DNA of 64,000 nucleotides from positions 2,542,001 to 2,606,000 of the forward strand of contig NC_135899.1 of NCBI RefSeq assembly GCF_964194155.1. The letters run 5' to 3'. The DNA comes from Cetorhinus maximus (lineage: Eukaryota). Positions within the stretch are counted from its first letter, which is position 1, and the number at the start of each line of letters is the position of its first letter. The notes under the pieces were generated by a model. The model ran no database searches. It was not told where the DNA came from and saw only the letters and a list, made by a program, of their open reading frames with translations. Position numbers and translations under genes: made by a program. Of the stretch, positions 22,963 through 23,343 are shown in pieces.

Positions 22963-23343
22963 ATGGCCCCGAGGAAAGGGCTGAATCAAGTGGTGTGCAG
23001 GATAAAGGCCAGAGGCCAGATCAAGAGCAAGAGGAAGAGGAAGAGGAAGCGGGAACGGGAACGGAAGGTGAGCTACAACCGCTACATCCACCGGGTGTTG
23101 AAGCAGATCCACCCCGAGATGAGCATCTCCTCCAAGACCATGTGCATCTTGGACTCGTTCGTCACCGACATCTTCGAGCTCCTCGCCTGCGAGGCTTCCC
23201 GCCTGGTCTGCTACAGGAAACGGCACACCTTGTTCGCCAGGGAGATCCAGACCGCCGTCCGCCTCCTGCTGCCGGGGGACCTGGCCAAACACGCCGTCTC
23301 CGAGGGGACCAAGGCGGTCACCAAGTACAACCGTTGCAAATAA
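22963..23343 (+). CDS. H2B: Divergent cysteine-containing histone H2B variant (126 aa)
   Basis: Histone fold [50 protein letters not shown], with octamer promoter and stem-loop. Confidence 0.93.

Follow-up and report, generated by a model that had tools for sequence, protein, structure and literature searches.

What is a histone H2B gene with five cysteines doing in an immune-gene region of a shark, and does it share descent with the germline histones of mammals? The question is raised by a 64,000-nucleotide stretch of the Cetorhinus maximus genome (assembly GCF_964194155.1, contig NC_135899.1, positions 2,542,001 to 2,606,000; G000:C22:2542001-2606000 in our numbering, C22 being its contig), hereafter called the window, which carries the gene referred to here as window H2B. 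An original prediction, made from the letters alone, proposed a sperm H2B capable of disulfide cross-linking and related to the mammalian variant H2B.L. The reading we prefer, with a probability of about 0.58, is that the gene is a shark-specific duplicate within a histone cluster in the MHC (major histocompatibility complex) class III region, and that it acts in the male germline, loosening nucleosomes before protamines take over.

The gene is intact, real and non-canonical. Its open reading frame (ORF) runs unbroken and intronless through 126 codons and a stop, and four contigs of DNA run X1 jointly span 22739-23800 of the window with 0 differences, which speaks against an assembly error, although the agreement is not independent because X1 may be the source sample. 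Judged by its Pfam profile (Histone, PF00125, E 7.9e-18), by the PDB, where solely H2B chains occur among the best 60 of 180 matches, and by a structure model with predicted helices at residues 57-83, 92-102 and 106-125 (predicted local distance difference test, pLDDT, 65; predicted template modelling score, pTM, 0.41), the product is a histone H2B bearing the histone fold and alphaC helix. An Atlas look-up placed it in generic H2B clusters.

Comparison with canonical shark H2B supports most of what had first been noticed in the protein. The five cysteines contrast with 0 in 9/9 canonical shark rows. Within the fold, 60/87 residues match canonical H2B, and the differences are concentrated where the original prediction saw them, in alpha1-L1 (9/19) and alpha2 (11/29), with all of its quoted peptides found; L2-alpha3 differs at 4/18 positions and alphaC, the acidic-patch helix, at 1/19. 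The equivalent of K120, the ubiquitination lysine, is retained there as K121, as had also been claimed. The supposedly novel N-terminal tail is not a new domain: it is the family tail without its first 8 codons, enlarged by recent slippage of AAGAGG/CGGGAA units. Relative to the canonical tail, lysines fall from 13 to 8 and arginines rise from 3 to 9, and the Mustelus orthologue separately holds 11 arginines in its tail.

Phylogenetic analysis (39 rows, 124 columns, JTT+G4, rooted on invertebrates; Shimodaira-Hasegawa-like approximate likelihood ratio test/ultrafast bootstrap support; H2B.L and H2B.W not among the rows) places the gene inside a clade of shark variants. The nearest single-domain relatives are shark proteins from Carcharodon (P0020, 75% identity), Heterodontus (P0047) and Mustelus (P0059). 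Window H2B groups with the dispersed copy L002 and Carcharodon at 96/100, then with Mustelus at 89/100 and Heterodontus at 96/99; these galeomorph variants are sister to slow-evolving Pristiophorus and Heptranchias genes (82/86), and the type represented by the neighbouring gene L005 joins at 90/97, a branching order in agreement with the shark species tree. The approximately unbiased (AU) test rejected a tree constrained to place the five galeomorph rows within canonical shark H2B (p=0.023), a result that long branches may bias. Canonical H2B is recognised by near-identical protein in large arrays; such arrays lie on C32, and window H2B is present as one intact copy on C22. Together with the fold identity, the AU result upholds the call of a non-canonical variant. 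The whole shark clade comes out as sister to mammalian H2B.1 only at 72/51, a relationship that amounts to nothing beyond a lead. The chromosomes bearing H2B.1 in cow, pig and horse are MHC chromosomes.

RefSeq already holds members of this clade under the automatic names 'histone H2B 7-like / H2B.L4-like', which confer no variant status: P0020, P0047 and P0059, and the slower P0033 and P0128. They lie in the same cluster by slot or contig and have C76/C125 in common with window H2B, and P0020 and P0047 likewise begin at an internal methionine; window H2B carries 13-15 extra changes and has a longer tail. The L005 type is also represented in the elephant shark, by an H2B in Supplementary Data S3 of PMC8857922, which suggests that the parent clade extends across cartilaginous fish.

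How the gene arose is recorded in its own leader. The final 8 codons' worth of the 5' untranslated region (UTR; 22939-22962) form a decayed leader that has lost its first ATG and whose counterpart in L005 (G000:C22:2827518-2827895) still codes (judged by eye), and this relic indicates that window H2B is a derived duplicate of a local L005-type variant. Upstream lie CCAAT boxes at 22796, 22845 and 22866, with a reverse-oriented one at 22791, followed by the octamer ATTTGCAT at 22876 and a TATA-like TTAAATA at 22895. The octamer is the H2B subtype promoter element, and the octamer-TATA layout is identical in the sister gene L005. A histone stem-loop follows 55 nt past the stop codon. Intronless, with an octamer/CCAAT promoter and a 3' stem-loop, window H2B has the architecture of a canonical replication-coupled histone gene.

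Evidence for where it is expressed comes from three dispersed copies, L002, L095 and L096; each begins within the 5' UTR and has no promoter. The first (L094/L002, G000:C5:16210541) extends past the stem-loop and ends roughly 220 nt later in a poly(A) tract; it is bounded by a short target-site repeat and is inserted in a repeat of which the other copies are continuous across the insertion point. The older, frameshifted L096 has the same 3' end, where we take the variant hexamer AAGAAA as a possible poly(A) signal; L095, also frameshifted, ends at the stem-loop. Since three processed copies were inherited, transcription in the germ lineage would be implied, and window H2B is, on this genomic evidence, likely active in germ cells. 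This much of the predicted germline role gains support; its sperm specificity is conjectural. The two kinds of retrocopy 3' end in turn indicate two mRNA forms, stem-loop and polyadenylated, both of which are reported for the H2B.1 and H2B.W genes in section 10 of PMC8857922; by that parallel the product could accumulate outside S phase. Run X5 matched nothing but a repeat upstream of the gene, which bears on its expression neither way.

L002 still has an open reading frame, annotated 'histone H2B 7-like' (P0021), yet promoter elements are absent from it and its evolution is neutral. Contigs with L002 letters prompted us to consider a second allele at the locus, which was rejected; merged parent and retrocopy paths together with L002 polymorphism fit those contigs. 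Tests of 13 other dispersed H2B loci yielded 11 mRNA-bounded copies of L005, a single well-conserved variant, which are spread over 8 other contigs and 95.6-97.5% identical, and 2 copies (L027 and L030) nearer canonical H2B. Several of the L005 retrocopies are annotated as genes by RefSeq.

The retrocopies are silent on sex and stage, and this leaves room for an oocyte or early-embryo variant of the H2B.K/H2B.N kind, or for a non-chromatin role, antimicrobial or subacrosomal, in place of a spermatogenic chromatin variant. Antimicrobial histone fragments exist, and an immune-gene location combined with positive selection would suit a defence role. According to sections 6 and 10 of PMC8857922, H2B.K and H2B.N are expressed in mammalian oocytes, and mammalian H2B.L is found in the subacrosomal region. 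The intronless, stem-loop architecture nevertheless fits H2B.1 and not the published H2B.K or H2B.N genes, the neighbouring H1 genes encode arginine-rich products that resemble protamine-like proteins, and the nucleosome-surface helix is conserved, so that we regard this family of explanations as unlikely.

Selection was assessed by comparing window H2B with L002 over 111 alignable codons, 15 repeat codons being left out. The two differ by 20 amino-acid-changing and 0 silent substitutions, and the probability of 0 silent differences is 0.001-0.005 across the site models tried. With Carcharodon as outgroup, 13 changes fall on the gene branch and 5 on the retrocopy branch, while 2 ambiguous ones are assigned to the gene branch by the older retrocopies or by uniqueness of state. 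On the gene branch, 15/245 nonsynonymous sites changed against 7/409 noncoding and silent sites (p=0.003), or 13/245 against 8/409 (p=0.022), amino-acid changes thus running at about threefold the noncoding rate; transversions make up 10/15 of these amino-acid changes and 0/14 of the noncoding ones (p=0.0002). The retrocopy branch, with 5/245 (p=0.77), is neutral. The alphaC helix stays conserved in every one of the four galeomorph genes, with differences from canonical at 1-2/19 positions, and the pattern is best read as constraint at the nucleosome surface with episodic positive selection elsewhere. Positive selection on window H2B is likely on the strength of this comparison. Gene conversion from a paralogue was also considered as their origin and rejected: the 150 protein and 41 DNA matches contained no donor, and the amino-acid changes were unaccompanied by silent ones; for the tail the rejection is less firm.

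A relaxed or decaying duplicate, its divergence reflecting lost constraint, could also produce a long branch (0.31 in the 39-row tree), a slippage expansion and an older branch with a nonsynonymous-to-silent rate ratio near 1, and the corresponding slot in sawfish carries no annotated gene in the covered part of the PMC10751288 supplement. Decay is nonetheless improbable: the frame is open in four galeomorph genera, alphaC, promoter and stem-loop are intact, the excess of amino-acid changes is accompanied by no silent ones, and the copies that did die, L095 and L096, are frameshifted.

The cysteines tell a story of turnover. C76 occurs in 17/39 rows of the tree and C125 in 11/39, the latter all within the shark variant clade; C61 is confined to lamniforms, C12 and C83 to window H2B, and the C91 seen in Carcharodon, Heterodontus and L002 has become phenylalanine in window H2B. 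In the alignment, then, C76 and C125 are the old cysteines, the other three of the five are young and a sixth position has been lost.

These residues bear on the proposal that window H2B is a sperm-retained histone that cross-links chromatin through disulfides. All four galeomorph orthologues carry 4-5 cysteines against 0 in canonical H2B, C-terminal C125 marks the shark clade, and the tail is arginine-enriched. According to the PMC2110730 abstract, dogfish sperm chromatin disperses only with a reducing agent. The same abstract, however, describes dogfish sperm basic proteins as differing significantly from histones. Besides the turnover itself, one predicted helix (57-83) carries C61, C76 and C83, which are spaced at least 7 residues apart and therefore should not pair with each other, and the H2A and H4 of the window cluster contain no cysteine; dogfish, moreover, has cysteine-rich protamines. 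Cross-linking through the termini is possible, though the data are explained without it, and the disulfide proposal as a whole strikes us as rather unlikely.

The original prediction also raised orthology with H2B.L. The motifs it named, YIxRVLK, ISSxT and YRKRxTL, are indeed present in the published H2B.L rows, as a hand comparison with Supplementary Data S1 of PMC8857922 confirmed. A true orthologue, dating the variant to early jawed vertebrates, would also fit identities of 42/87 with cow and 45/85 with platypus H2B.L, the intronless state of both genes (H2B.L judged by its length) and a tree that has no H2B.L row. Against this stand the 60/87 identity to canonical H2B and the lateness of what is shared. 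Of the residues held in common with cow H2B.L against canonical H2B (R44, T59, R85, L90 and R124), R85 and R124 arose after L002 and T59 after L095 and L096, and the slow-evolving squalomorph relatives lack R44 and L90. The late origin of the H2B.L-like motifs, of the tail expansion and of two of the five cysteines makes convergence, rather than descent, the likely cause of the resemblance. The diagnostic H2B.L residues in L1, alpha3 and alphaC, compared by hand with 17 H2B.L rows, are not those of window H2B, and eutherian hallmarks in these segments, including loss of K120, are by eye absent from it. The loci differ as well: H2B.L maps to mouse chr13:99 Mb, cow chr20, pig chr16 and horse chr14, on chromosomes other than those of H2B.1 (PMC8857922 Table S1), as opposed to MHC class III, and the same source dates H2B.L to the mammalian ancestor. 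Protein searches returned canonical or fused H2B and no H2B.L among the best 120, 120 and 150 matches, and a scan of stored proteins for the H2B.L motifs gave 0 matches. Window H2B is very probably not H2B.L, and orthology, with the early date attached to it, is a highly improbable account of the gene.

Placed beside the described variants, window H2B resembles several and coincides with none of those compared. With H2B.L (subH2B) it shares a divergent alpha1-alpha2, the motif matches, cysteines in alpha2/L2 and positive selection (reported for H2B.L in section 9 of PMC8857922 and inferred here); H2B.L differs in being less than 50% identical to canonical H2B, with an altered alpha3/alphaC, another locus, a poly(A)-type gene and, in the rows compared, no K120 lysine. 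H2B.1 (TH2B, H2BC1) is matched in the combination of stem-loop and downstream poly(A) site, here used by two retrocopies, but has a canonical-like fold (81-83/87 identical to canonical), lies in the HIST1 cluster and is of eutherian origin according to PMC8857922. H2B.W likewise evolves fast under positive selection, has stem-loop plus poly(A) ends and is germline-expressed; it is X-linked, eutherian and less than 50% identical to canonical H2B, unlike window H2B. By these features window H2B is a member of neither H2B.1 nor H2B.W. H2B.K and H2B.N are also germline variants, H2B.K being old in vertebrates, yet in both an intron interrupts the sequence coding for the fold (PMC8857922, PMC9526256), and H2B.N lacks most of the alphaC that is complete here.

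In the reading we favour, the gene arose by duplication in its histone cluster, surrounded by MHC class III genes, and would be transcribed in the male germline, its stem-loop and read-through polyadenylated mRNA allowing accumulation outside S phase. Since it keeps alpha3-alphaC and the K120 equivalent, the protein should still pair with H2A and enter nucleosomes; changes in alpha1-alpha2 and L2 would alter contacts with DNA and H4, and the tail has moved from lysine to arginine. Recent change was presumably driven by positive selection; the cysteines would mostly be by-products of turnover, old C125 being the best candidate for a cross-link. Nucleosomes would thereby be loosened and remodelled ahead of protamine replacement, in a mode of action like that of H2B.1 or H2B.W.

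Several observations weigh against this account. The loosening is argued by analogy with TH2B, which loosens nucleosomes, and the structure model is of moderate confidence. The retrocopies point to the germ lineage, oocytes and early embryo included, and not to testis specifically, and the canonical-like copies L027 and L030 indicate that retroposition is not limited to variants. The selection test draws on a single gene-retrocopy pair, its relative-rate comparison of 13 against 5 is not significant (p=0.096), and one alignment of the 15 repeat codons gives 2 silent differences, on the L002 side. In the 5' UTR about 5/34 sites differ, compared with 9/288 in the 3' flank, which makes the neutral baseline uncertain, and the older branch, with about 8 nonsynonymous and 2-3 silent changes, is compatible with neutrality.

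To our knowledge, vertebrate germline H2B variants have been described almost exclusively from mammals. PMC8857922, in the part covered, lists H2B.K as the sole germline H2B variant older than mammals. Among the papers listed from the open-access literature, none described shark H2B variants or this cluster as such, older subscription papers on elasmobranch sperm proteins lying outside that coverage; the main text of PMC10751288 contains 0 occurrences of 'histone'. Window H2B points to an independent germline H2B radiation in sharks at a conserved locus. Convergence can, on this reading, produce H2B.L-like residues, which calls for caution in naming variants by motif, and the series of parent and retrocopies supplies a built-in neutral control and a time series for adaptive change in a highly conserved protein.

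The features of the window are collected in Table 1. Its surroundings were characterised by a Pfam scan of 148/499 candidate ORFs, together with a few chosen ones, over a 664-kb part of C22. This part carries, in sequence, an exon presumed from its peptide to belong to ABHD16A, TRAF, a histone sub-cluster ending in H4 and window H2B, SAPCD and then VARS; beyond this valyl-tRNA synthetase gene follow a second histone sub-cluster, TRIM and an HSP70 array. SAPCD, VARS, HSP70 and similar genes are markers of the human MHC class III region. A search for the MHC class II beta family gave no match, either here or in the controls.

Table 1. Features in and around window H2B (positions counted from the first letter of the window).
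Feature	Position	Strand	Remarks
H2B variant coding sequence	22963..23343	+	126 aa, net charge +22, Cys 12/61/76/83/125
Slippage expansion of basic tail	23020..23064	+	Recent, 8-10 extra codons; absent in L002, L095, L096, P0020
H2B-type promoter	22791..22901	+	CCAAT boxes, octamer, TATA-like box
5' UTR	22927..22962	+	Start point of all three retrocopies
Histone 3' stem-loop	23398..23413	+	6-bp stem, one G-U pair, 4-nt loop; fold -6.9 kcal/mol; L095 terminates here
Downstream poly(A) site	23617..23634	+	L002 and L096 both terminate here in an A-tract
H4 with non-canonical residues and stem-loop	21716..22027	+	Cluster member adjoining the H2B variant
H2A	1801-2190	-	Cluster member
Arg-rich H1-like genes	3316-3888, 10406-10948, 15996-16664	-	Cluster members
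Arg-rich H1-like gene	6508-7482	+	Cluster member
Arg-rich H1-like gene spanning N-gap	~14400-14800		Cluster member
SAPCD gene, first exon (synteny marker)	43361..43789	+	Pfam SAPC2_N, E 3.5e-25; 2 genome matches

The neighbourhood recurs in other elasmobranchs. White shark chr19 carries class III orthologues according to PMC10751288, whose supplement gives the mirrored order there, with a 351-bp gene (116 codons) in the slot of window H2B, flanked by an inferred SAPCD gene and a 312-bp gene. P0020 also has 116 codons, and its identity with the slot gene is inferred, since the genes are nameless there and a second 351-bp gene lies in the other sub-cluster. According to the same supplement, sawfish has the same histone cluster, with named genes, around vars1, the catshark slot holds short unnamed genes including the candidate LOC119975960 (774 bp), and 0/16 reedfish 'histone H2B' rows lie near abhd16a-vars1-sapcd1; duplicated histone genes on catshark chromosome 13 are mentioned in PMC11979771. 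For Heterodontus, Mustelus and Heptranchias, the contigs of the candidate orthologue and of the L005-type gene have the same length and are apparently one and the same. By these published maps white shark, catshark and sawfish have all conserved the cluster beside SAPCD, VARS and HSP70.

A wider proposal is that sharks and rays possess a dedicated germline histone locus in MHC class III, comprising variant H2B, H4, H3, H2A and arginine-rich H1s, and that the galeomorph H2B was driven by positive selection along a histone-to-protamine path (lysine to arginine, tail expansion, cysteine gain) whose steps the retrocopies date. That route is usually credited to H1, and we put the idea forward tentatively, as more doubtful than probable.

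Other members of the two sub-clusters deserve mention. The H4 beside window H2B differs at T2, I66, S70, R80 and L85 (Met counted) from the H4 at C22:2.518 Mb, and could possibly be its co-evolving partner. The H1-like ORFs resemble protamine-like proteins; the one at 6508-7482 encodes 324 aa with a polyQ/polyP N-terminal part and an arginine-rich tail (57 R, 24 K), is followed by a stem-loop and has a paralogue near C22:2.795 Mb. A frameshift origin of that tail was ruled out, no lysine-rich alternative frame being present. Three H2A genes with identical proteins occur across both sub-clusters (C22 2.528, 2.544 and 2.822 Mb, the second being that of the window), and the H1 at C22 2.836 Mb has a globular domain identical to that of the window H1 at 15996-16664; such identical copies suggest conversion or recent duplication across VARS. 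In L075 (G000:C22:2826188-2826600), an H3, histidine replaces a glutamine near the C-terminus that we take to be the canonical residue.

Further H2B genes of this genome stand apart from canonical H2B. L012 (G000:C22:25.13 Mb) belongs to an additional conserved elasmobranch variant clade (99.6/100) of sharks and rays with an alpha2 cysteine; L073 (G000:C22:2810800-2811260) is another long-branched variant (0.45), devoid of cysteine. The tail of L026 (G000:C3655) is unusual and the 90 nt past its stop codon contain no stem-loop; this gene is possibly of a replication-independent type.
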